DNA of 64,000 nt from Escherichia coli (GCF_003018115.1 NZ_CP027457.1); one strand, 5' to 3'. Counted from the first letter of the stretch, positions 1 to 35,620 are shown. Translations and numbers: made by a program. The notes: generated from the letters alone by a model not told the origin.

Positions 1-291
1 ACTAAGCAGTGTTGGGATGATAATGCTGCGTGTTTTATAGAAACTGGCACCCAGTACCGCGAAGCCGACCAGCGTGGGCACGAAACGGCGTGTATCGTGC
101 ATCACTTCTGGTGCGGTAGAGACAACCAGCAGAGCGCATATCGAGGCGATGCCAATGGTGTCGAGCAAAATACCTACCGCGCCACGTTTGGTTGGGCGGG
201 CATTACCCACACGCAGGCGCAGCGGCAAATAGCGGAAGCAATAATTCGCTGCGCCAACCAGTAACCCAAGCAGCAGAACCTCATAGCTCAT
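1..291 (-). CDS. ygaH: AzlD-family small subunit of branched-chain amino-acid exporter (YgaH); 3' end cut by window edge
   Basis: Minus-strand frame from ATG at ~289-291 stays open to position 1 and reads [23 protein letters not shown]..., hydrophobic; start overlaps ygaZ stop. Absent from ORF track because it has no in-window stop. Confidence 0.7.
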
Positions 292-1018
292 CGGGCGCTC
301 CTTGCCAGAATGCCTGGATTAACGCAGTGAGGCAGCCACAGACAATGCCTGCCAGAATGGCGACGGGAATAGAAAATAGCGTTACGCCTGCAAGGGCACC
401 AACTAACGCTGCGGTAACGCAAAGAGATTGTTTGCGCTGGAAAGAGGCGAGCAGGAAACTCATAAAGAGTGCCGGAAGCATAAAACCTAATGCTGCTTCA
501 ACGGCGGGATAACCTTGCAGCAAGCCGCTGCCGGAGAATGCCCCTATTACCGTACCAAATACCCACGATGACCATGAACTGAAGGCAATGCCGATCATCC
601 AGTTCTCGCTCCAGCGGCGATTATTGCGTACCAGTTTTGCGGTGGCGGCGGCAAAAACCTCATCCGTCAGGCCAAACGCCCATAGGGCGGTTTTCGATTT
701 TTGCAGACGCTGAATAATACGGCTACGCAGTGACGGGCCATACAAAACATGGCGAACATCCATTGCCATGACGGTCAGTGCAGCAACCCACAAACTACTC
801 CCTGCTGCCAGCATCGCGGTAATGACGAACTGGCTCGCGCCTGCATAAATGATGCAGGAGAAAAAAACGCTTTCGAGAGGAGAGAATCCCAGACGGGTCG
901 CATTCAGACCGAACGCAAAGGCCACCGGAATATAACTAATAACAATCGGTAAACTGTCTTTGCATCCTTCCATGAAGGTCGCCGAACCAGGAGCAGGCTG
1001 TGGAGTAGGGCTTTCCAT
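281..1018 (-). CDS. ygaZ: AzlC-family branched-chain amino-acid (valine) exporter subunit
   Basis: 245-aa [24 protein letters not shown]..., multi-pass membrane protein; conserved position upstream of ygaH. Confidence 0.85.
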
Positions 1019-1141
1019 AGAGTGTACGCTTAACGATTGTTAATATTATAAATAGACTGAATGAATATCTTAACCTTATCAGACTGATGGGCTTCTTAAC
1101 ACCCTTATAAGTGTAAAGCCACGAAAACGGTTGCTGATTGC

Positions 1142-2326
1142 TTAATTTGCGGCTTCCTGACGATGAAAACCTCGCCACCAGACCAGTAAGTTAACCAGGG
1201 CAATCGTCGCGCCAGCCAGACAAACGCCAGCCCAACCGCCATGTTGCCAGGCTGAGGCTGAAATTAGCGAACCGGCGGCACCGCCAATAAAGTAGCTGGT
1301 CATGTAACCTGCGGTCAGGCGATTACGCGCATCAGGGTGTATTCGATAAATTACCGTCTGGTTAGTGATATGCACGCCCTGAACGGTGAGATCCAGCACC
1401 AGGATTCCGATAATCAACGCCAGTACGGAAGTGTGACCAAACCAGATCGCCAGCCATGAAAGTAATAGCAGCAGCAGACCGAAAGTTGTGGTGTGGTGCG
1501 ATTTGCCCTTATCGGCAAAACCGCCCGCCGGACGAGCGCCCAACGCTCCGGCAGCTCCCGCAAGTCCAAACAGACCAATTACACCATCGCTGTAGTTAAA
1601 AGGTGGAGCGGCAAGCAAAAAGGCCATTGAGGTCCAGAGAATGCTGAAATTGGCAAAGGTCAGGCAGCCCAGCAACGCGCGGGTACGCAGAATTTTATCG
1701 CTGATAAACATACTGAAAACGGAACCCAACAACTGTGGGTAGTTGAGGTGGGTTTCTGATTTCATTTGTGGCAGACCACGCCATAATGCCAGCGCCATCA
1801 GTGCCATTAACACCGAGGCAACCCAAAAGACGGTGCGCCAGCCGCCGAGATTCGCCAGCAATCCGGCAACGGTCCGTGCGAGTAAGATCCCCAACAGCAG
1901 ACCGCTCATAATAGTGCCAACCACTTTGCCGCGTTTGTCCGGTGAAGCCAGCGTCGCTGCCAGTGGAACCAGAATTTGTGCCACGACTGAGAATAAACCG
2001 GTTAATGCCGTACCGAGGATCATCATCGCCAGCGACTGACTGCTGGCAGTGATTAACATGCCGCCTGCCGCCAGTAAGGTCATCGAGACAATCAGGCGGC
2101 GGCGTTCAAACATATCACCGAGGGGAACAAGAAACAGTAGACCTGCGGCATAGCCCAACTGCGCGGCGGTAACAATAAAGCCTGCCGAACTGGCGGAAAG
2201 GGAAAAGTTACGCGCGATGGTGTCGAGCAATGGCTGGGCGTAATAATTACTGGCTACCGCCAGACCGGTGGCGATAGACATCAGCACGATCAGCGCCGGG
2301 CTAAGCTCATGATTAGGTTTGGTCAT
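1142..2326 (-). CDS. ygaY: MFS-family transporter, intact 394 aa
   Basis: 394-aa ORF with 12-TM-like hydrophobic profile and MFS-type motifs; sits between ygaZ and proX. Confidence 0.75.
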   Translation of the reverse strand: MTKPNHELSPALIVLMSIATGLAVASNYYAQPLLDTIARNFSLSASSAGFIVTAAQLGYAAGLLFLVPLGDMFERRRLIVSMTLLAAGGMLITASSQSLAMMILGTALTGLFSVVAQILVPLAATLASPDKRGKVVGTIMSGLLLGILLARTVAGLLANLGGWRTVFWVASVLMALMALALWRGLPQMKSETHLNYPQLLGSVFSMFISDKILRTRALLGCLTFANFSILWTSMAFLLAAPPFNYSDGVIGLFGLAGAAGALGARPAGGFADKGKSHHTTTFGLLLLLLSWLAIWFGHTSVLALIIGILVLDLTVQGVHITNQTVIYRIHPDARNRLTAGYMTSYFIGGAAGSLISASAWQHGGWAGVCLAGATIALVNLLVWWRGFHRQEAAN

Positions 2327-2428
2327 TATTTTTGTTCATCAGGTGATGATTAAGCTGGAAATCAATAATAGCGGATGTTGATGAATATGGGATGAAAGAT
2401 AGATTGTTGAAATGTGCGATGTGGTTTG

Positions 2429-2465
2429 TAGGCATGATAGGACGCGTTAGCGTCGCATCAGGCAT
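2429..2465. repeat. REP (repetitive extragenic palindromic) element
   Basis: gtaggcatgataggacgcgttagcgtcgcatcaggc is an imperfect palindrome of the GCCTGATGCGACGC REP type, in the ygaY-proX intergenic space. Confidence 0.6.
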
Positions 2466-2517
2466 TGTGTACAGAGCGGCGGATGAGGCAAAAACGCCTA
2501 ATCCGCCCGAATAAAAA

Positions 2518-3510
2518 TTACTTCTGCGCTGCCAGCGCCTCATTCACCCAGCCATCGAACTGCTGCTGGTGGGCTTTGATCCAGCCATCAACATGGCCCT
2601 GAATATCGCCTTCTGAGGCTTTGCCGTCATGCATAATGGCGTTCTGGGCGTTAATATCTGCCACTGGCAACTGCATAATGGCAAACAGTTTCGCTGCTGC
2701 CGGGTTTTTCTCGGCCCAGGCTTTATTGGCAACGATATGCATGGTGCTGACCGGGAAGCCGTAATTCGCGCCATTCGGCAGTTTGGTATCGGCATTTTTA
2801 TCGCCCGGCAGTGCAGAGAACGGCACCTGCAACCAGACCACATCTTTCCCTGGCTTCAGCTCATTACTCACCCAGTACGGCGTCCAGGTGTAGTAAAACA
2901 CCGGTTTGCCCTCTTTGTAACGACTGATGGTGTCAGCCATCATCGCCGCGTAGTTCCCCTGATTATGCGTCACGGTATTGGTCAGTTCATACGCGGCAAG
3001 CTGGTGGTTGATCGCACCTTCGCAGCCCCAGCCAGGGTTACAGCCAGTCAAATCCGCTTTACCGTCGCCGTTGGTATCGAACAGTTTGGCGATCTTCGGA
3101 TCTTTCAGTTGTGCGATGTTGGTGATTTTGTACTGGTCGGCGGTTTTCTTATCGATCAGGTAACCCTGTGCCGCGCCGTTAACAAATACCCCTTCACGAT
3201 AAAATTTCTTATCGCCACCGGCAGCTTCGTACATGTTGTCATGCAGTGGCGTCCAGTTCACGGCGGTGAAGGTTGCATCGCCGGAAGCAAGCGAGGTGTA
3301 GCCAACGTTGTAATCCACTTCGCTGGGTTTATTGACGGTATAACCTAATTTCTCCAGCGCACGACTGACCAGCAGTGTCTGGAAGGTTTCTTCGGTGATG
3401 GTGCTTTGAACTGGATTAACAGTAATGCCTTTGCCCGGCAGATCGGCAGCAAAAGTTTGTGTAGAGATAAGCGTGGCAAACGCTGTCGCAAAAAGTACGC
3501 TATGTCGCAT
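2518..3510 (-). CDS. proX: Glycine betaine/proline ABC transporter periplasmic binding protein
   Basis: ORF 2518..3558; likely start [21 protein letters not shown] (signal peptide) at 3510; ProX-like sequence; proVWX order. Confidence 0.9.
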
Positions 3511-3566
3511 TGTTATTCCTTTTTTTGGCAGGGTGATATGCCCGGCGTCACCGGGCAAGTGCAGAG

Positions 3567-4631
3567 TTACTTAATGAATGGGCGGGTCAGCAGACCGACA
3601 GGGCCAGTGGTGTACCAGCGACGGTTGCCGCGACTGCGTGAGTCGCGCCCAACGGCCTGCGTCAGGCGATCGAGGATAATGGCGAGGATCACAATCCCGA
3701 CGCCGCCAACGGTGGCAAGCCCCATATCCAGACGACCGATACCGCGAAGTACCATCTGACCCAGCCCGCCGACGGCAATCATCGAGGCAATGACCACCAT
3801 AGAAAGGGCCAGCATCAGCGTCTGGTTAACGCCCGCCATAATGGTCGGCATCGCCAGCGGTAACTGAACTTTGAACAGCATCTGGCGCGGGCTGGCACCG
3901 AATGAGCGCGAGGCTTCAATCAGATCCGCCGGAACCTGGTTAATCCCCAGAATGGTCAGACGGATAATCGGCGGCAGAGCAAAGATGATCGTCACCACCA
4001 CGCCCGGCACGTTACCGATACCAAACAGCATGACGATTGGCACCAGATAAACAAACGCTGGCGTGGTCTGCATGGCATCAAGCAGTGGACGAATAATTTT
4101 CGCCGCTCGTGGACTTCTCGCCAGCCAGATCCCCAACGGCAAACCGATGACGATACAGAACAGCAGGGCGGTTAACACCAGCGCCAGAGTCACCATTGCC
4201 TGCGACCAGGCACCGATTGCGCCGATGGCAATCAGCGAAACCAGCGTCGCCACACCCATTCCGACCCCGGAAATCTGCCAGGCGATGAGAGCGAAAACGA
4301 TAATCGCCACCGGTGCGGGCATACCCAGCAGCAATTGCTGGAAACCGTTGAGGATATAATCAACCGGAACGCGCACGCCCTGGAAGACGGGACGGAAATG
4401 GGTAACAACCCAGTCGATCCCTTCAGTGACCCAACTGTCGAGCGGGATCAGCGTTTTATGGAACGGATCGAGAATATTAAAATGCTCGACGTTTGGCGCA
4501 GGCGTACTGGTCAGCCAGTCAGCACCACCACCGTCAGTCGGTGCAGTCGCCGGTGTACCCCAGGCGTCTGCGGATTGCACGGCACTGTCCGCCGCTGGCG
4601 TGGTATCCCACGGATTATTTTGATCAGCCAT
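3567..4631 (-). CDS. proW: Glycine betaine/proline ABC transporter permease
   Basis: 354-aa ORF, hydrophilic N-terminus followed by ABC permease membrane domain; overlaps proV stop. Confidence 0.9.
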
Positions 4632-27299: not shown

Positions 27300-27525
27300 T
27301 GAAGAACTGCGTGCTCAGGGTTACCACTTCAACGTAAAACTGTGGCAGGAGGTCCGGTCTGAAAAAACTGCACAGGACATCATCGGCAGGGAACGCACTG
27401 GTAGTCTGTAAACTGAACCGACTGGGGCGCAGTATGTGGCATCTTGTCGTGCTGTTGGAGGAGCTGTGCGAACGTGGTATTAACTTTCGTGCTCTGGCCC
27501 AATCTATATTTGCCCAACAATGGGG
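27300..27525 (+). pseudogene. pinH: Remnant of a Pin/Hin/Gin-family DNA invertase (pinH-like fragment)
   Basis: Plus-strand translation ...[48 protein letters not shown] aligns with the central part of the intact invertase at 58439..59005 (LSAGDTLVVWKLDRLGRSMQHLVTLIEELRQRGVNFRSL); no N-terminal catalytic Ser region. Confidence 0.65.
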
Positions 27526-27906: not shown

Positions 27907-30900
27907 ATGAAATTTATGAACAGGACCAGTCCCCATTATTGTCGCCGCTCAGTACTTTCCTTATTGATATCTGCCCTGATATATGCCCCGCCCGGGATGG
28001 CGGCCTTTACTACTAATGTTATTGGTGTGGTAAACGATGAGACTGTAGATGGTGTCCAAAAAGTAGATGAACGAGGTACAACAAATAACACTCATATTAT
28101 CAACCATGGCCAGCAGAATGTTGAAGGCGGGGTATCCAATGGAAGTATTATTGAATCGGGTGGATATCAAGATGTAGGAAGGCATAATAATTTTGTGGGG
28201 CAGGCTAATAATACAACCATTAACGGGGGCAGACAGTCAATTCATGACGGGGGTATTTCCACAGGTACGACAATCGAGAGTGGCAATCAGGACGTTTATA
28301 CAGGTGGTATCAGCAATGGAACGACAATTAAGGGTGGTAATTCACACATAAGTGGGGGGACTGCGAATGGAACAATCATTGATGGTGGCAGCCAACGAGT
28401 AACAACTCAGGGGCATGTCGACAGTACAACGATAAATAAGTCTGGCTCTCAGGACATCACGCAAGGAAGTCTGGCAACGAACACAACCATAAATGGTGGT
28501 CGACAGTATGTTGAACAGAGCACAGTAGAAACAACAACCATTAAAAATGGCGGTGAGCAAAGAGTATATGAGAGCCGTGCGCTGGACACGACGATTGAAG
28601 GCGGAACTCAGTCTCTGAATAGTAAGTCAACGGCAAAAAATACGCAGATCTATTCTGGTGGCACGCAAATTGTTGATAACACCAGCACCTCGGATGTTAT
28701 TGAAGTTTATTCCGGTGGCGTGCTTGATGTTAGTGGTGGTACGGCAACAAATGTTACCCAGCACGATGGTGCAATTTTAAAAACAAACACTAACGGTACG
28801 ACGGTGAACGGTACGAATAGTGAAGGTGCATTCTCCATCCACAATCACGTGGCAGACAATGTGTTGCTGGAAAACGGTGGTCATTTAGACATAAACGCAT
28901 ATGGTTCGGCAAACAAGACGATTATCAAAGATAAAGGAACAATGTCAGTTTTAACCAATGCTAAAGCTGATGCGACCCGAATAGATAATGGCGGGGTTAT
29001 GGATGTTGCCGGAAACGCGACAAATACCATAATTAATGGTGGCACACAGAATATTAATAATTATGGCATAGCCACAGGCACTAATATCAACAGCGGAACG
29101 CAAAATATCAAAAGCGGCGGGAAAGCTGACACAACAATTATATCCTCCGGGAGCCGGCAGGTTGTTGAGAAAGATGGTACGGCAATTGGCAGCAATATTA
29201 GCGCCGGAGGCTCACTGATTGTCTATACCGGCGGTATTGCACATGGGGTTAACCAGGAGACGGGCAGTGCTTTAGTTGCCAACACGGGTGCAGGGACTGA
29301 TATCGAAGGATACAACAAGCTCTCTCACTTCACTATTACCGGAGGGGAGGCTAATTATGTTGTGCTGGAAAATACCGGCGAACTGACGGTAGTGGCTAAA
29401 ACCTCGGCGAAAAATACTACCATTGATGCTGGCGGTAAGCTGATTGTCCAGAAGGAGGCTAAAACAGATAGCACCAGACTTAATAATGGCGGCGTTCTGG
29501 AGGTTCAGGACGGTGGTGAGGCTAAGCATGTTGAGCAACAATCCGGCGGCGCATTAATTGCTTCCACGACCTCCGGAACACTTATCGAAGGAACCAACAG
29601 TTATGGTGATGCTTTCTACATCAGGAATTCAGAAGCTAAAAATGTAGTGCTGGAAAACGCTGGCTCATTAACAGTCGTCACTGGTTCCCGGGCAGTTGAC
29701 ACGATTATTAATGCCAACGGCAAAATGGATGTTTATGGAAAAGATGTTGGCACTGTACTCAATAGTGCTGGCACCCAAACAATATATGCCAGTGCCACTT
29801 CTGATAAAGCAAATATCAAAGGTGGCAAGCAAACGGTATATGGTTTAGCCACTGAAGCAAATATCGAAAGTGGTGAACAAATTGTTGATGGCGGGTCAAC
29901 AGAGAAAACACACATCAATGGTGGCACGCAAACCGTTCAGAATTATGGTAAGGCAATCAATACCGATATCGTCTCTGGCCTACAACAAATTATGGCAAAC
30001 GGGACAGCGGAAGGTTCCATTATTAATGGGGGTTCACAGGTAGTTAATGAGGGCGGTCTGGCTGAAAACTCGGTGCTTAATGACGGCGGCACACTCGATG
30101 TGCGGGAGAAAGGCAGCGCAACGGGGATACAGCAGAGTAGCCAGGGCGCTTTGGTTGCAACCACCAGGGCGACGCGGGTCACAGGAACACGCGCGGATGG
30201 CGTCGCGTTCAGCATCGAGCAGGGTGCGGCGAACAATATCCTGCTGGCAAATGGCGGCGTGTTAACCGTGGAGTCAGACACCACTTCCGCCAAAACACAG
30301 GTCAATACGGGCGGACGGGAGATCGTCAAAACAAAAGCCACTGCGACAGGCACGACGCTCACCGGCGGTGAACAAATTGTCGAGGGTGTGGCGAATGAGA
30401 CAACAATTAACGACGGCGGAATACAAACAGTTTCAGCTAACGGAGAGGCAATAAAAACAAAGATCAATGAAGGCGGAACGCTGACAGTCAACGATAATGG
30501 CAAAGCGACAGATATCGTCCAGAACAGCGGTGCCGCTCTCCAGACGAGCACGGCTGACGGTATTGAAATCAGCGGTACTCACCAGTACGGCACTTTTTCC
30601 ATTTCCGGCAATTTAGCGACCAATATGTTGCTGGAAAATGGCGGTAATTTATTGGTATTAGCAGGTACCGAAGCTCGCGACTCCACGGTTGGCAAGGGTG
30701 GGGCAATGCAAAACCTGGGTCAGGACTCCGCCACAAAGGTTAACTCTGGTGGGCAATATACCCTTGGGCGGTCAAAAGATGAGTTTCAGGCTCTGGCCCG
30801 GGCAGAAGATCTCCAGGTCGCTGGCGGGACGGCAATCGTCTACGCAGGTACGCTGGCGGATGCATCGGTCAGTGGCGCGACAGGAAGCCTGTCGTTAATG

Positions 30901-32502
30901 ACGCCACGGGATAATGTTACGCCAGTTAAACTCGAAGGGGCGGTCCGGATTACCGATAGCGCGACATTGACTCTGGGAAATGGCGTCGATACAACGCTTG
31001 CCGACCTGACGGCTGCCAGCCGGGGCAGTGTCTGGCTTAACAGCAATAATTCCTGTGCAGGCACCAGCAACTGCGAGTATAGAGTAAACAGTTTGCTACT
31101 TAACGACGGTAATGTTTATTTATCAGCACAAACAGCAGCGCCTGCCACAACTAACGGTATCTACAATACGCTGACAACCAATGAACTTTCCGGTAGCGGT
31201 AATTTCTACCTGCATACCAACGTTGCAGGCTCCCGGGGCGATCAACTGGTCGTCAACTACAACGCCACTGGTAATTTTAAAATCTTTGTTCAGGATACCG
31301 GCGTCAGCCCACAGTCTGACGACGCGATGACGCTGGTGAAAACAGGGGGAGGGGATGCTTCGTTTACGCTGGGCAATACCGGCGGTTTCGTTGATCTTGG
31401 GACCTATGAGTATGTCCTGAAAAGCGACGGCAACAGCAACTGGAACCTGACCAATGATGTCAAACCCAACCCGGACCCCAACCCAAATCCAAATCCGAAG
31501 CCAGACCCAAAACCCGATCCAACGCCAGACCCAAATCCAAAACCAGACCCGACTCCCGAGCCAACGCCGACACCCGTTCCGGAGAAACGCATCACGCCTT
31601 CTACCGCAGCCGTACTCAATATGGCAGCAACATTACCGTTGGTATTTGATGCTGAGCTAAACAGTATTCGCGAGCGGTTGAACATAATGAAAGCGAGTCC
31701 ACACAACAATAATGTCTGGGGGGCGACGTATAACACCCGTAATAATGTCACCACCGATGCGGGTGCCGGGTTTGAGCAGACGCTGACAGGAATGACAGTG
31801 GGGATCGACAGCCGTAATGATATTCCTGAAGGAATTGCCACGCTGGGCGCTTTTATTGGTTATTCCCATTCACATATCGGTTTTGATCGCGGAGGACATG
31901 GCAGTGTGGGCAGTTATTCTCTGGGCGGCTATGCCAGTTGGGAACATGAAAGTGGTTTCTATCTGGACGGTGTCGTGAAGCTGAACCGTTTTGAAAGTAA
32001 CGTAGCCGGTAAAATGAGCAGCGGTGGAGCCGCCAATGGCAGTTACCACAGCAACGGGCTGGGCGGTCACATTGAAACCGGGATGCGATTTACCGATGGT
32101 AACTGGAACCTGACGCCGTATGCATCGTTAACGGGGTTCACCGCTGATAACCCTGAATATCATTTATCCAATGGCATGGAATCGAAATCAGTCGATACCC
32201 GCAGTATATATCGTGAACTGGGTGCAACGCTGAGTTACAACATGCGTCTGGGGAACGGTATGGAAGTTGAGCCGTGGCTGAAGGCGGCTGTGCGCAAAGA
32301 ATTTGTCGATGATAACCGGGTGAAGGTGAATAATGACGGTAATTTCGTCAATGATTTGTCGGGCAGACGTGGAATATACCAGGCAGGTATTAAAGCCTCA
32401 TTCAGCAGTACGTTAAGCGGGCATCTCGGGGTGGGGTATAGCAACGGTGCCGATGTGGAATCCCCGTGGAACGCGGTGGCTGGTGTGAACTGGTCGTTCT
32501 GA
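27907..32502 (+). CDS. ypjA: AIDA/YpjA-type autotransporter adhesin
   Basis: Start MKFMNRTSPHYCRRSVLSLLISALIYAPPGMAA (signal peptide); glycine/threonine-rich repetitive passenger; proline-rich PNPDPNPNPNPKPDPKPDP linker; C-terminal beta-barrel ending ...AVAGVNWSF. Confidence 0.85.
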   Translation: MKFMNRTSPHYCRRSVLSLLISALIYAPPGMAAFTTNVIGVVNDETVDGVQKVDERGTTNNTHIINHGQQNVEGGVSNGSIIESGGYQDVGRHNNFVGQANNTTINGGRQSIHDGGISTGTTIESGNQDVYTGGISNGTTIKGGNSHISGGTANGTIIDGGSQRVTTQGHVDSTTINKSGSQDITQGSLATNTTINGGRQYVEQSTVETTTIKNGGEQRVYESRALDTTIEGGTQSLNSKSTAKNTQIYSGGTQIVDNTSTSDVIEVYSGGVLDVSGGTATNVTQHDGAILKTNTNGTTVNGTNSEGAFSIHNHVADNVLLENGGHLDINAYGSANKTIIKDKGTMSVLTNAKADATRIDNGGVMDVAGNATNTIINGGTQNINNYGIATGTNINSGTQNIKSGGKADTTIISSGSRQVVEKDGTAIGSNISAGGSLIVYTGGIAHGVNQETGSALVANTGAGTDIEGYNKLSHFTITGGEANYVVLENTGELTVVAKTSAKNTTIDAGGKLIVQKEAKTDSTRLNNGGVLEVQDGGEAKHVEQQSGGALIASTTSGTLIEGTNSYGDAFYIRNSEAKNVVLENAGSLTVVTGSRAVDTIINANGKMDVYGKDVGTVLNSAGTQTIYASATSDKANIKGGKQTVYGLATEANIESGEQIVDGGSTEKTHINGGTQTVQNYGKAINTDIVSGLQQIMANGTAEGSIINGGSQVVNEGGLAENSVLNDGGTLDVREKGSATGIQQSSQGALVATTRATRVTGTRADGVAFSIEQGAANNILLANGGVLTVESDTTSAKTQVNTGGREIVKTKATATGTTLTGGEQIVEGVANETTINDGGIQTVSANGEAIKTKINEGGTLTVNDNGKATDIVQNSGAALQTSTADGIEISGTHQYGTFSISGNLATNMLLENGGNLLVLAGTEARDSTVGKGGAMQNLGQDSATKVNSGGQYTLGRSKDEFQALARAEDLQVAGGTAIVYAGTLADASVSGATGSLSLMTPRDNVTPVKLEGAVRITDSATLTLGNGVDTTLADLTAASRGSVWLNSNNSCAGTSNCEYRVNSLLLNDGNVYLSAQTAAPATTNGIYNTLTTNELSGSGNFYLHTNVAGSRGDQLVVNYNATGNFKIFVQDTGVSPQSDDAMTLVKTGGGDASFTLGNTGGFVDLGTYEYVLKSDGNSNWNLTNDVKPNPDPNPNPNPKPDPKPDPTPDPNPKPDPTPEPTPTPVPEKRITPSTAAVLNMAATLPLVFDAELNSIRERLNIMKASPHNNNVWGATYNTRNNVTTDAGAGFEQTLTGMTVGIDSRNDIPEGIATLGAFIGYSHSHIGFDRGGHGSVGSYSLGGYASWEHESGFYLDGVVKLNRFESNVAGKMSSGGAANGSYHSNGLGGHIETGMRFTDGNWNLTPYASLTGFTADNPEYHLSNGMESKSVDTRSIYRELGATLSYNMRLGNGMEVEPWLKAAVRKEFVDDNRVKVNNDGNFVNDLSGRRGIYQAGIKASFSSTLSGHLGVGYSNGADVESPWNAVAGVNWSF

Positions 32503-32536: not shown

Positions 32537-32663
32537 ATGTCGCCAGGAGCCGCGGCTCCTTTGCGTATCCTTTTTTGTCTCCTCACCGTCTGGTCGGTGT
32601 CCTGCTGAGACTGCTAACTTCCTGTTTTTGTTGGTGTTGTCCTTACACCGTCCAATCATGATT

Positions 32664-32708
32664 GGTGGAGCTGGCGGGAGTTGAACCCGCGTCCGAAATT
32701 CCTACATA
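32664..32708 (-). repeat. tmRNA (ssrA) 3'-end-like sequence: prophage att core copy
   Basis: Minus strand reads gtaggaatttcggacgcgggttcaactcccgccagctccacca, i.e. the acceptor/T-arm end of tmRNA with CCA; no upstream tmRNA body, so this is a partial duplicate. Confidence 0.7.
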
Positions 32709-32792: not shown

Positions 32793-33839
32793 TTAATGCT
32801 CTGTCGCCAATCTGTCGCCATTGTAGGTCAACGAAGGTTGAGCCTTCCCTTTGTTTGTTATAATTTCATCAAAGATAGCTGGATTATTATCTTTCAGTAA
32901 TCTTGCTAGTATAATGATTTGCCCAGACGAGCCATCATCCTTGAATGAAAGGAAATTATCGGTAATATCAAGAATATCAATGGTAAATTTGAAGTAAGTT
33001 TCAATTGTATCGCCAAGCTCAATGCTGGACATGAAGTTAGTAACCATTTCATATCCATCAAAGTATAAAGTTGCATGTTCATTTAACTCCATTGGAGTTA
33101 GGCAAAGCATTCGATTAAGTTCGGATAAGTGTTTTTCTATTGAATGAAGAGATTGCATTTGACGGATTAAAACTTCGTCAAACTGAGAGCCATGATTAGA
33201 TGAATGTATCTTCTCTAGGTTTTTTAGTATATCAACCCAGTGATTATTCACTTCACGTATGTATTCTTTATCTGTATTTTTAGGCCGTCCCTTCTCTGGT
33301 GAGCTATTTATGAAAATATATCTATATAGATGTATTGGGTAGTTAATTTTATAACTTATCTCTTTAGTACCATAATGACGTTCGCGTTTAATGGTTTTGT
33401 TAGGTAAATTGGTGAAATAATCAGTAACGAACTTTAGATGGCTATAGTAGCTATCAGATAGATTCTTTTGCTTGGTTTCCTCAATTTGTCGGTTTGTTTG
33501 AACTGTGCGGTGTATGTTTGCTACGACAGCAACAAATGGTATGGACAAAGAAAGTAAGGCGATAGGAAGCTTGCTAATTGCAATGAAATTATTAAAGCCC
33601 TCACTATCAAATTGAGGGGAATGTCCAAGCCAGGAAAATATACCAAAGTATATCGCTGAAAATACAGGAATCCTAAGTGATTGTTTAAATAAGTATTGAC
33701 TTGTTAATGGCCTTTCATCCATGTTAAAGCCTTTTTTTGATACGCATAGATATAATTCAAGGCATATATATAAAAAATATATTATGATAAGTAAGTACGA
33801 TATCCATGGGTATTGTTGGATATAGTTATTAACAAACAC
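32793..33839 (-). CDS. Prophage cargo: uncharacterized membrane-anchored protein (348 aa)
   Basis: Very AT-rich ORF between att core and integrase; N-terminal hydrophobic helices (YLLIIIYFLYICLELYL, IPVFSAIYFGIFSWLG, LPIALLSLSIPFVAVVANI) followed by a soluble domain; start overlaps the integrase stop. Confidence 0.6.
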   Translation of the reverse strand: MFVNNYIQQYPWISYLLIIIYFLYICLELYLCVSKKGFNMDERPLTSQYLFKQSLRIPVFSAIYFGIFSWLGHSPQFDSEGFNNFIAISKLPIALLSLSIPFVAVVANIHRTVQTNRQIEETKQKNLSDSYYSHLKFVTDYFTNLPNKTIKRERHYGTKEISYKINYPIHLYRYIFINSSPEKGRPKNTDKEYIREVNNHWVDILKNLEKIHSSNHGSQFDEVLIRQMQSLHSIEKHLSELNRMLCLTPMELNEHATLYFDGYEMVTNFMSSIELGDTIETYFKFTIDILDITDNFLSFKDDGSSGQIIILARLLKDNNPAIFDEIITNKGKAQPSLTYNGDRLATEH

Positions 33840-34868
33840 TTTCTAATTTTCTCCATCCAAGGTTAGCAAGAGGATTTTTGGTTACAGCATCTTCCAGATG
33901 GTCGGGAGCGAAGTGGGCGTAAATCATTGTCATTTTTATATCGACATGGCCCAGAATATCGCGCAGCACCAGTATGTTTCCGCCATTCATCATAAAGTGA
34001 CTTGCAAATGTATGTCGTAATACGTGTGTGCATTGCCCTTCTGGTAGCTCGATGCCAGCTCGTTTTACCGCACGTTCAAAAGCTTTCCTACAAGGTGTAA
34101 ATAATTTTCCCCTATTCTTAGGCAGTTCTTCATATAAATCCTTTGAAATAGGCACTGTTCGGTTTTTCTTTCCTTTAGTCTTGGTATAAGTGATACGGTA
34201 TTTTGACACCTGATGACTCTGCAGGTTTTCGGCTTCGCTCCAGCGTGCGCCGGTGGCCAAGCATATTTTTGCAATCATCAGCAGACTGGGGCTTTGAGAA
34301 TCAGCACAGGCATCCAGCAGACGTTTAATTTCTTCCGGGGTCAGGAACGCCAATTCACCCTCAGCAATTTTAAATGTTGGCAGCCCAGCAAGCGGGTTGG
34401 GGGCTGCCAGTGGCCCAGCTTTTTCAGTGTACCAAAAACAGATGATAGGTTGCGCTGTTCAAGATTTACCGTGCGGGGCTTAACGGGCGACATAAGCGTG
34501 CCATCTTCATTTCGTACTTCACCTTTTAACCGTGCTTCGCGGTATTTCGTAAACTCACCAGCTGTCAGTTCTGAGGCGATGGGATCGCCTAGACCATTAC
34601 AGATAATTCTAAGTTTCGCCATGAGGCGCTTGGGGTCTGCGAGTGTTTGACCATACAGGGAATACCACAGCTCAATTAATTCTGATAGATGTCGCCGATC
34701 TTCCTTTTCCCCTAGCCATGGTTTTTTGTTCACTTCTTCCATTGTGAAGCTTTCAAACGCAATGGCTTCGCCTTTGGTAGCAAATTGCTTACGCACGCGC
34801 TTACCATTGCGTCCATTGGGATAGCACTCACACAACCATTTTCCGTTCGGCTGTTTTCTGATGGTCAT
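33829..34868 (-). pseudogene. int: P2/186-family tyrosine integrase, split by an apparent frameshift in a C-run (as assembled)
   Basis: N-terminal half (ORF 34341..34868, MTIRKQPNGKWLCECYPNGRNGKRVRKQF...) and C-terminal catalytic half (ORF 33829..34353, ...GARWSEA...HVLRHTFASHFMMNGG...LGHVDIKMTMIYAHF) are in different frames; frames meet at the G/C homopolymer near 34399-34403. Confidence 0.8.
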
Positions 34869-34871
34869 AAG

Positions 34872-35510
34872 TTAGAGGTTCTTGATTACTTTGACTGCAC
34901 GTCCTAGGACTTCCACATCATCTACAGAACATTCAAATGAAGTGTCATCTTGGTTAACTACTATTTTGTTTCCGGGTATGCGCGCAATTTTGACGATGCT
35001 TTTAACTCCGTCCATATCGACTAACCAGAAGCCATTACTGACTTGTTTAACAGACGTATCCACTACAAAGCTATCATTAGCTGTTTTAACAAATAAAGCG
35101 TTGGATGAGTCACCATCGAGCAGGCTGCTATCAAGAAGAATTTCATCACTTGGCTGCAGTTCGCCGTTCTTCAGTTCAACACGTTTGATGCTAGGAGCGA
35201 CGATCTTAGAAAGTGGTCTTACAGTGACAGGAGGTTCATTTTTGAGATTTGTTTCTTCGTTCTCACACGCATACATATCTCCTTGACCAGTAGCCAGCCA
35301 TAGAAGGGAAACTCCTGTTTCAAGGGCACATTGGATTACCCATTCGGCAGGAAAGCTATCCCTTAAGTATCTGTTAGCCATAGTGCTTTTTGATACTTCC
35401 AGATGTTCGCAGAGCTGCTGTCGTGAGCTGAAGTTGTAAGCCTTAATAAGCCTATTAATCGCATCGCGCCCACCACTATCATTCCCCGCCTTGATTAAAC
35501 TCATAATCAA
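34872..35510 (-). CDS. cI: Phage 186-type CI immunity repressor
   Basis: 212-aa ORF with N-terminal HTH and C-terminal region matching remembered 186 CI blocks (CALETGxxLxWLxTGxG, WLVDxxGxxSI, FECxxDDxxxLGR). Confidence 0.75.
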   Translation of the reverse strand: MIMSLIKAGNDSGGRDAINRLIKAYNFSSRQQLCEHLEVSKSTMANRYLRDSFPAEWVIQCALETGVSLLWLATGQGDMYACENEETNLKNEPPVTVRPLSKIVAPSIKRVELKNGELQPSDEILLDSSLLDGDSSNALFVKTANDSFVVDTSVKQVSNGFWLVDMDGVKSIVKIARIPGNKIVVNQDDTSFECSVDDVEVLGRAVKVIKNL

Positions 35511-35620
35511 ACCTCTTGATGTATATAAAAAGTGATCCTAATATCCATCCATGGTTTGAAAAGCAAAACCAAACCACATAAAACAAGATAAAACGAAACC
35601 AAACTAAGAGATACTGCACT
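35511..35620. promoter_or_regulatory. Divergent lysis/lysogeny promoter-operator region (pR/pL-like)
   Basis: Short AT-rich space between divergent cI and apl; individual operators not resolved. Confidence 0.45.

Follow-up and report, generated by a model that had tools for sequence, protein, structure and literature searches.

The prophage at ssrA

The stretch of DNA analysed here (the window; 64,000 nucleotides of the Escherichia coli sequence NZ_CP027457.1) spans a junction between the chromosome and an integrated prophage. Its chromosomal part is near-identical to that of O169:H41 ETEC genomes (9 SNPs over 32.7 kb), and homology to prophage-free relatives stops at position 32668, within a 45-bp copy of the 3' end of ssrA (tmRNA) that occupies 32663-32707 on the minus strand and matches the ssrA 3' end of LR882990 at 100%. 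We refer to this int-proximal junction, at which the ssrA sequence is duplicated, as attL; the other junction lies beyond the end of the window. The Logan contigs that carry the element stop 30 nt into the attL repeat, where an assembly graph with k=31 would be expected to break if the att core is duplicated.

Reading inwards from attL, the element encodes a 309-aa cargo ORF, the integrase (int), a 186-type CI repressor (34872-35504, minus strand; PHROG match), an Apl/Cox-like excisionase and regulator (35621-35863, plus strand; PHROG match), CII, Fil, a Dam methylase, gpA, a DinI-like protein, a 593-aa cargo protein and the structural module. Taken together, the Pfam and PHROG matches and the ORFs describe a 186-type switch combined with P2-type replication and structural genes, the structural module being full length, and by sequence the element is a Fels-2-like P2/186-family prophage in ssrA. 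Fels-2 and SopEPhi likewise integrate in ssrA (PMC3448106). Positions 35520 and 35549, within or close to the intergenic switch between cI and apl, carry SNPs private to the window: T and C there, against C and T in all six sister contigs.

Cargo is carried at two places. The 309-aa ORF lies between attL and int (32793-33722, minus strand) and belongs to phrog_17460, a family of unknown function; it has no Pfam match, shows a weak match to the PADLOC 2TM effector (E=8e-5), and is conserved beside the same integrase in relatives. The second site, at 41489-44138 between the replication module and the portal gene, holds the genes of a DUF262/GmrSD_N protein of 593 aa and of a divergent DUF8087 protein of 111 aa. 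The larger of these matches NsnA (E=8e-31) and also PD-T4-2_A in PADLOC, and judged on such matches the interval is likely an anti-phage defence hotspot. In the assembly of SRR8321524 the 593-aa gene is split by an A8 to A7 change at window position 42506.

At the same ssrA site, between ypjA and ssrA, O169:H41 ETEC genomes such as LR882990 carry a different island of 21 kb, with HxsABCD genes, a relaxase and its own integrases. Further out, upstream of the ypjA/EhaD autotransporter gene (27916-32502, following the annotation of relatives), the window has a tRNA-Ile gene (24804-24879) and a short recombinase remnant (27350-27508), which suggests the remnant of an older island.

The integrase gene and its lesion

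The integrase gene (33829-34868, minus strand) is present as two adjacent and overlapping ORFs in different frames. The N-terminal ORF (34341-34868, minus strand) encodes 175 residues, 154 of them native and the remaining 21 out of frame (QPPTRLLGCQHLKLLRVNWRS), and matches the Int_N family (PF24624, E=2e-25, Pfam). The C-terminal ORF (33829-34353, minus strand) opens with a TTG codon, encodes 174 residues that span the whole catalytic domain, and matches Phage_integrase (PF00589, E=3e-26, Pfam). A first-pass annotation made from the sequence alone had already described the two halves as lying in different frames, with the break within 34395-34420, and this description is borne out by the separate reading of Int_N and Phage_integrase. 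Repair by a single base yields a tyrosine recombinase of 346 aa, in which Pfam places Int_N at residues 57-167 and Phage_integrase over the C-terminal part; in the window the two domains do not share one uninterrupted frame, because of a 1-nt deletion.

Residues 170-336 of the repaired protein align with the catalytic domain of the HP1 integrase (1AIH, E=8.5e-68), and the motifs ATGARWSE, HVLRHTFASH, LGH and YAHF are all kept in that alignment. A second solved match of the repaired protein is 5C6K (E=3.4e-54), a chain named 'Integrase'. With 1AIH and 5C6K as the best solved homologues, the earlier assignment to the P2/186-type integrases holds, and on its domain content the gene is a pseudogene of the P2-186-HP1-type tyrosine recombinase family.

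A megablast search of 5,426 complete E. coli genomes returned intact int alleles at 99.5% identity, in which the match is one base longer than the window gene. When the intact alleles of CFSAN051542 and ACN001 were aligned to the window int, the sole indel was a change from GGGGG-CTG-A-CCAGTGG to GGGGG-CTG-CCAGTGG. The site of this deletion is 34406/34407 (gene on the minus strand), where the undeleted form reads CTGACCAG and the window reads CTGCCAG. The base that is gone is the A between CTG and CCAG on the plus strand, outside homopolymers. Its coding-strand counterpart, a T, is the second position of the Ser155 codon, TCA.

This places the lesion a few bases away from where it had been sought. 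The first-pass annotation put the break in a C/G homopolymer, the G5 run at 34399-34403 (C5 on the coding strand, the minus strand), and proposed comparing the length of that run among relatives. We find the run to be five bases long in all 48 int copies compared, intact and deleted alike; what is missing is a single A flanked by G and CC, and the G5 itself is unaltered. The proposed repair is refuted by the same alleles, for where the addition of a base to the G5 run was said to restore ...LGHWQPPNPLAGL..., the intact alleles encode ...LGHWSAPNPLAGL..., a peptide that includes HWSAPNPL. An extra G in the G5 run does reopen the frame, as HWQPPNPL with QP in place of SA, and every intact allele disagrees with that product.

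Distribution of the deletion among assemblies

At the DNA level the deletion was found in each of the six carrier contigs that we retrieved (L006-L011), namely NCBI GCA_946909845.1, an ENA leek metagenome, and the Logan assemblies of SRR8321524, SRR33680639, SRR31617790 and ERR10796150. These contigs show 2-9 SNPs relative to the window over up to 20.5 kb, some of them common to subsets of carriers, and within int they show no difference from it. Since the carriers differ by SNPs from the window and from one another, and do so in shared patterns, they represent distinct strains and not one data set sequenced repeatedly. An identical deletion in 6/6 contigs that differ elsewhere is the mark of a real, inherited pseudogene allele, and we conclude from these comparisons of assembled sequence that the int frameshift is a genuine inherited mutation and not a sequencing error. 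The first-pass annotation had offered pseudogene and sequencing error as the two options, and the recurrence of the deletion in independently assembled contigs favours the former.

The exact 175-aa product is encoded on 18-24 contigs of public assemblies, the longest of 5,001,754 bp, and the intact 346-aa Int on at least 1000. The deletion is missing from the 42 int copies other than L006-L011 that make up the 48 compared. It was found in none of the 70 matching complete RefSeq E. coli genomes and, in a pattern scan, in none of 40 IMG/VR copies, all 40 of which had an intact int. With no occurrence in either of these sets, and with its support coming from draft and metagenome assemblies, the allele is a rare one that marks a small E. 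coli lineage.

The invertible tail-fibre segment and its two frameshifts

Two further reading-frame breaks lie in the tail-fibre region, which has the structure of a Gin/Cin/Pin-type invertible segment. The segment itself extends over 56449-58383 and is bounded by 27-nt inverted repeats (56449-56475 and 58357-58383), and beside it stands an intact serine DNA invertase gene of the Gin/Cin/Pin/Hin type (58439-59005, plus strand; Resolvase, E=3e-53, and HTH_7). The segment supplies alternative C-termini for the tail fibre. In the orientation of the window, the fibre gene H is joined to a gp53-like C-terminal segment (55413-56835, plus strand) followed by its tail-fibre assembly gene (56856-57299, plus strand), and the alternative C-terminal segment, with a Collar domain (57873-58408, minus strand), is accompanied by a TfaE-like assembly gene (57271-57873, minus strand). 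Both orientations occur among assemblies: in two sister assemblies (L022 and L024) the stretch corresponding to 56461-58374 is flipped between flanks that are 100% identical, and an intact H-Collar fibre of 515 aa is encoded. Fibre switching in P2-like prophages and inversion in e14 have been documented previously (PMC4272514).

The H gene with its gp53-like segment is frameshifted, and removal of one A gives a protein of 473 aa. The first-pass annotation was right that this frame is broken, and wrong about the site, which it put in an A-run near 56650-56660. Comparison with relatives of 96% identity located the inserted A in the context GC-AAAA-CAATG, so that the actual lesion is an A4 run at 56616-56619 (plus strand) where relatives have A3; the A6 run at 56653-56658, some 40 nt further downstream, is unchanged in those relatives. 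We found sister fibre segments through a look-up of the TfaE-like protein. A4 is present in eight independent assemblies whose segments are 0-1 SNP from the window, two of them from samples that also have the int deletion (ERR10796150 and ERZ28594605), and A3 is present in seven. Being common to eight independent assemblies, the A3 to A4 frameshift in the gp53-like segment is, on this comparison, real and inherited.

Other look-ups were less productive. Exact-protein searches with the 425-aa frameshifted fibre ORF and with the 87-aa and 86-aa fragments gave no match, which says little, since PGAP emits no pseudogene proteins and start choices vary. The conserved tail protein I, used as a query, led only to P2-like prophages unrelated to this one (6545 blocks) and had no bearing on the lineage. 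Two RefSeq records with A3 and C5 (AP022095 and CM142775) have a fibre region equal in length to that of the window with both of its frameshifts repaired, and PGAP nevertheless annotates H there as a 'partial' N-terminal pseudogene with a separate 'gp53-like' CDS; these calls indicate that annotation of mosaic fibre genes is unreliable even where there is no frameshift.

The Collar segment of the window is frameshifted as well, and addition of one C gives a product of 178 aa. Here the first-pass annotation, which had pointed to a G/C-run near 58172-58180, was accurate: the change is C5 to C4 at 58173-58176 (minus strand), and is either a private mutation or a consensus error. C5 is found in all eight sister segments, which otherwise differ from the window by 0-1 SNP, and in 22 of 22 other loci; an IMG/VR pattern scan gave C5 in ten copies of ten and C4 in none. 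An exact 71-nt search did recover C4 in at least six complete genomes, these being isolate 07-4299 (CP027462.1), where it stands on a diverged prophage, and several K-12 derivatives: DH5alpha (CP025520.1), JW5437-1 (CP014348.1), CV601gfp and ATCC BAA-196. MG1655, C600, J53 and others have C5. The K-12 records compared show no substitutions whatever; with C5 they have an open frame of 262 aa, and with C4 a truncated tail identical to that of the window. JW5437-1 differs by C5 to C4 alone, and in DH5alpha three homopolymers are shortened within a span of 300 bp (G4 to G3, C5 to C4 and A5 to A4). In 07-4299 the tfaE gene is also altered, from C4 to C3. Homopolymer deletions of this kind in the e14 stfE/tfaE-type region of K-12 derivatives and 07-4299 can probably be put down to errors in the consensus, which give rise to spurious RefSeq proteins, of which WP_072301434.1 and WP_172619140.1 are examples.

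We consider it probable that the C4 of the window, alone among the three lesions, is a consensus error, a reading that leaves the other two real and is compatible with our overall interpretation. The sister segments and other loci are unanimous for C5, and C4 turns up sporadically in K-12 derivatives, for which C5 with an open frame of 262 aa is the standard sequence; this pattern resembles consensus undercalling, in a segment that is present in two orientations in culture, and for that reason an artefact is the likelier account. On the other side, no other indel occurs over some 53 kb compared with independent assemblies, which implies a high consensus quality, and the C4 of 07-4299 stands on a diverged prophage, where it could reflect recurrent slippage or recombination. 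That the C4 of the window is instead a private mutation is the less probable of the two readings. We regard as doubtful the further idea that the C5 tract is a real, hypermutable on/off tract in which C5 to C4 has arisen repeatedly, in the window strain, in 07-4299 and in several K-12 derivatives. Were it true, switching by slippage would be layered over switching by the invertase, and the C4 calls would then be genuine, not a long-read consensus error that keeps recurring. The C5 run in this invertible e14-type fibre segment is at any rate a recurrent site of indels in public 'complete' genomes, K-12 derivatives included.

These results qualify the earlier expectation that the prophage would be fibre-defective. 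It stands for the orientation seen in the window and fails for the flipped sister assemblies with their intact 515-aa fibre; the lineage would thus be fibre-defective only in the orientation that the window happens to show. If the C4 is real, and only then, the strain would be fibre-defective in both orientations.

Probable consequences of the integrase deletion

The deletion shifts the reading frame at codon 155, between the core-binding and catalytic domains. The frame thus closes after the 154 native residues and 21 junk residues, the native sequence ending about 15 residues short of the point where 1AIH places the beginning of the catalytic domain, and the catalytic residues R...HxxR...H...Y are encoded in a different frame. 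Tyrosine integrases need linked core-binding and catalytic domains, and because this need is established, we infer from the domain architecture a loss of Int activity. With no functional Int the prophage would be able neither to excise nor to re-integrate. Fixed in ssrA, it would pass down a small E. coli lineage by vertical inheritance, which agrees with its occurrence in several strains with SNPs accumulated among them. Excision deficiency is a reasonable consequence to expect from the sequence. A small amount of full-length Int could conceivably still be made through ribosomal slippage, and a related integrase elsewhere in the genome could conceivably rescue the element in trans.

The stronger proposal, that the split Int is still functional, deserves a closer look. 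It could operate by -1 slippage at a T_TTA_AAA heptamer (34368-34374, minus strand), or by separate production of a catalytic domain from the TTG at 34353. The heptamer, a speculative candidate for a -1 slip site, conforms to the X_XXY_YYZ register in the shifted frame and stands 10 codons after the deletion; a -1 slip there would return the ribosome to the catalytic frame (...KIAEGELAFLTPEE...) and give a full-length Int with a substituted linker of 13 residues. Yet no stable fold follows it, the stimulatory structure sought downstream being absent (z = -0.46 against shuffles), and intact alleles have the same heptamer in another register, which argues that it was not selected for slippage. 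As for the second route, the TTG of the catalytic ORF is preceded, 4 nt away, by an SD-like GAGGG (34351-34362), the resulting fragment could act together with the N-terminal one, and the break falls about 15 residues before the crystallised HP1 domain, so that the fragments approximate whole domains. We know of no tyrosine integrase that works with the core-binding domain on one chain and the catalytic domain on another. Carriers of the deletion show no further int mutation, a point in favour, but at such low divergence their lack weighs little, and the allele is rare (18-24 contigs against at least 1000). A functional split Int is therefore very improbable, and a leaky integrase through slippage at T_TTA_AAA is less likely than the hypermutable C tract. 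A programmed -1 frameshift was considered and rejected: the heptamer is in register, but there is neither structure nor conservation, and the arrangement exists only in a rare deletion allele. A non-functional Int thus continues to be the reading we prefer.

Assembly error and the overall interpretation

The first-pass annotation counted three breaks out of three in homopolymers and saw in this a systematic assembly error. By context, however, the int lesion is outside any run, and of the other two one affects a very short run and the other a run of five; run length differs from that of relatives at the two fibre sites (A3 to A4 and C5 to C4), and at int it does not. Nor are indels scattered elsewhere over the parts of the window compared. 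The chromosomal 32,668 bp of the window, compared with LR882990 and CP024269, have 9 substitutions and no indel, in a stretch that contains 168 homopolymers of at least five bases, and some 20.8 kb of prophage compared with sister assemblies have no indel except at the C site. When independent assemblies are consulted, the int deletion is present in 6/6 and A4 in 8/8, and C4 alone is absent (from 8/8). This leaves room for an artefact at no more than one of the three sites, which is no systematic pattern.

That all three frameshifts are artefacts of systematic homopolymer miscalling, in a prophage that is really intact, can on this evidence be set aside as scarcely credible: mononucleotide runs do hold two of the three lesions, C4 is missing from eight otherwise identical segments, the C5 to C4 change is found in some K-12-derivative assemblies with zero substitutions relative to MG1655 and in DH5alpha comes with two further homopolymer deletions within 300 bp, and reads of mixed orientation may degrade the consensus of an invertible segment, but the int lesion is outside a homopolymer and recurs in six independent assemblies of six, A4 recurs in eight, and 32.7 kb with 168 runs of five or more contain not one indel.

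We put at roughly 0.9 the probability of the overall interpretation, which rests on sequence comparison: a Fels-2-like prophage in ssrA with a genuine int deletion that would leave it with no functional Int, with a real A3 to A4 frameshift in its fibre gene, and with a C5 to C4 change that is likelier a consensus error. The integrase should accordingly be annotated as a genuine pseudogene and not 'corrected'. The ssrA prophage of this lineage is probably immobile, which bears on predictions of inducibility and on its use as a stable lineage marker. For two of the three lesions the site guessed from the nearest homopolymer proved wrong, and comparison of independent assemblies was able to separate real frameshifts from artefacts without recourse to reads. 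The value of the finding is mostly for annotation and quality control.

Comparison with known systems

The closest parallels to the element as a whole are Fels-2 and SopEPhi (Felsduovirus, Salmonella), with which it shares the junction at the ssrA 3' end, CI, Apl/Cox-like, CII, Fil and DinI-like proteins, gpA and the P2-type structure. Among phage records it is nearest to P2-like prophages from Klebsiella, Salmonella and E. coli, a Felsduovirus among them; DNA identity in the early region is about 90% or less to most of the phage records listed, and the best match, Klebsiella phage Kp4865-2, reaches 96% over 77%. In contrast to Fels-2 and SopEPhi, the present element has an E. coli host, a frameshifted int and cargo of its own, consisting of the 593-aa DUF262/GmrSD-like protein and the 309-aa ORF.

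At the level of the integrase, the resemblance is to the HP1/P2/186-type enzymes, for which solved structures exist (1AIH, together with 5C6K and 5DOR, chains named 'Integrase'): the catalytic domain is of the same kind and Int_N lies upstream of it. The difference is that the two halves of the window int are out of frame, owing to the 1-nt deletion at codon 155. The fibre region, for its part, is built like the G segment of Mu, the C segment of P1 and the P segment of e14, with an invertase adjoining a segment of 1.9 kb that holds two fibre C-termini, each with its own Tfa, and its Collar segment is 97-99% identical to e14 stfE/tfaE of K-12. Unlike those systems, it has one alternative, the gp53-like segment, that is genuinely frameshifted in the lineage, and another, the Collar segment, that is frameshifted only in the window assembly.

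Finally, the element can be placed among the cryptic prophages of E. coli, such as e14 and others of K-12, which are likewise retained in the chromosome with damage to genes for mobility and infectivity. As in prophages of the e14 type, the invertase gene is intact, and the fibre segment is found in the opposite orientation in sister assemblies. What sets the element apart from e14 and the K-12 cryptic prophages is how early its decay is, for the other P2-type genes checked are full length and the damage amounts to two or three point frameshifts. We therefore see in it ordinary early prophage decay within a known phage family.
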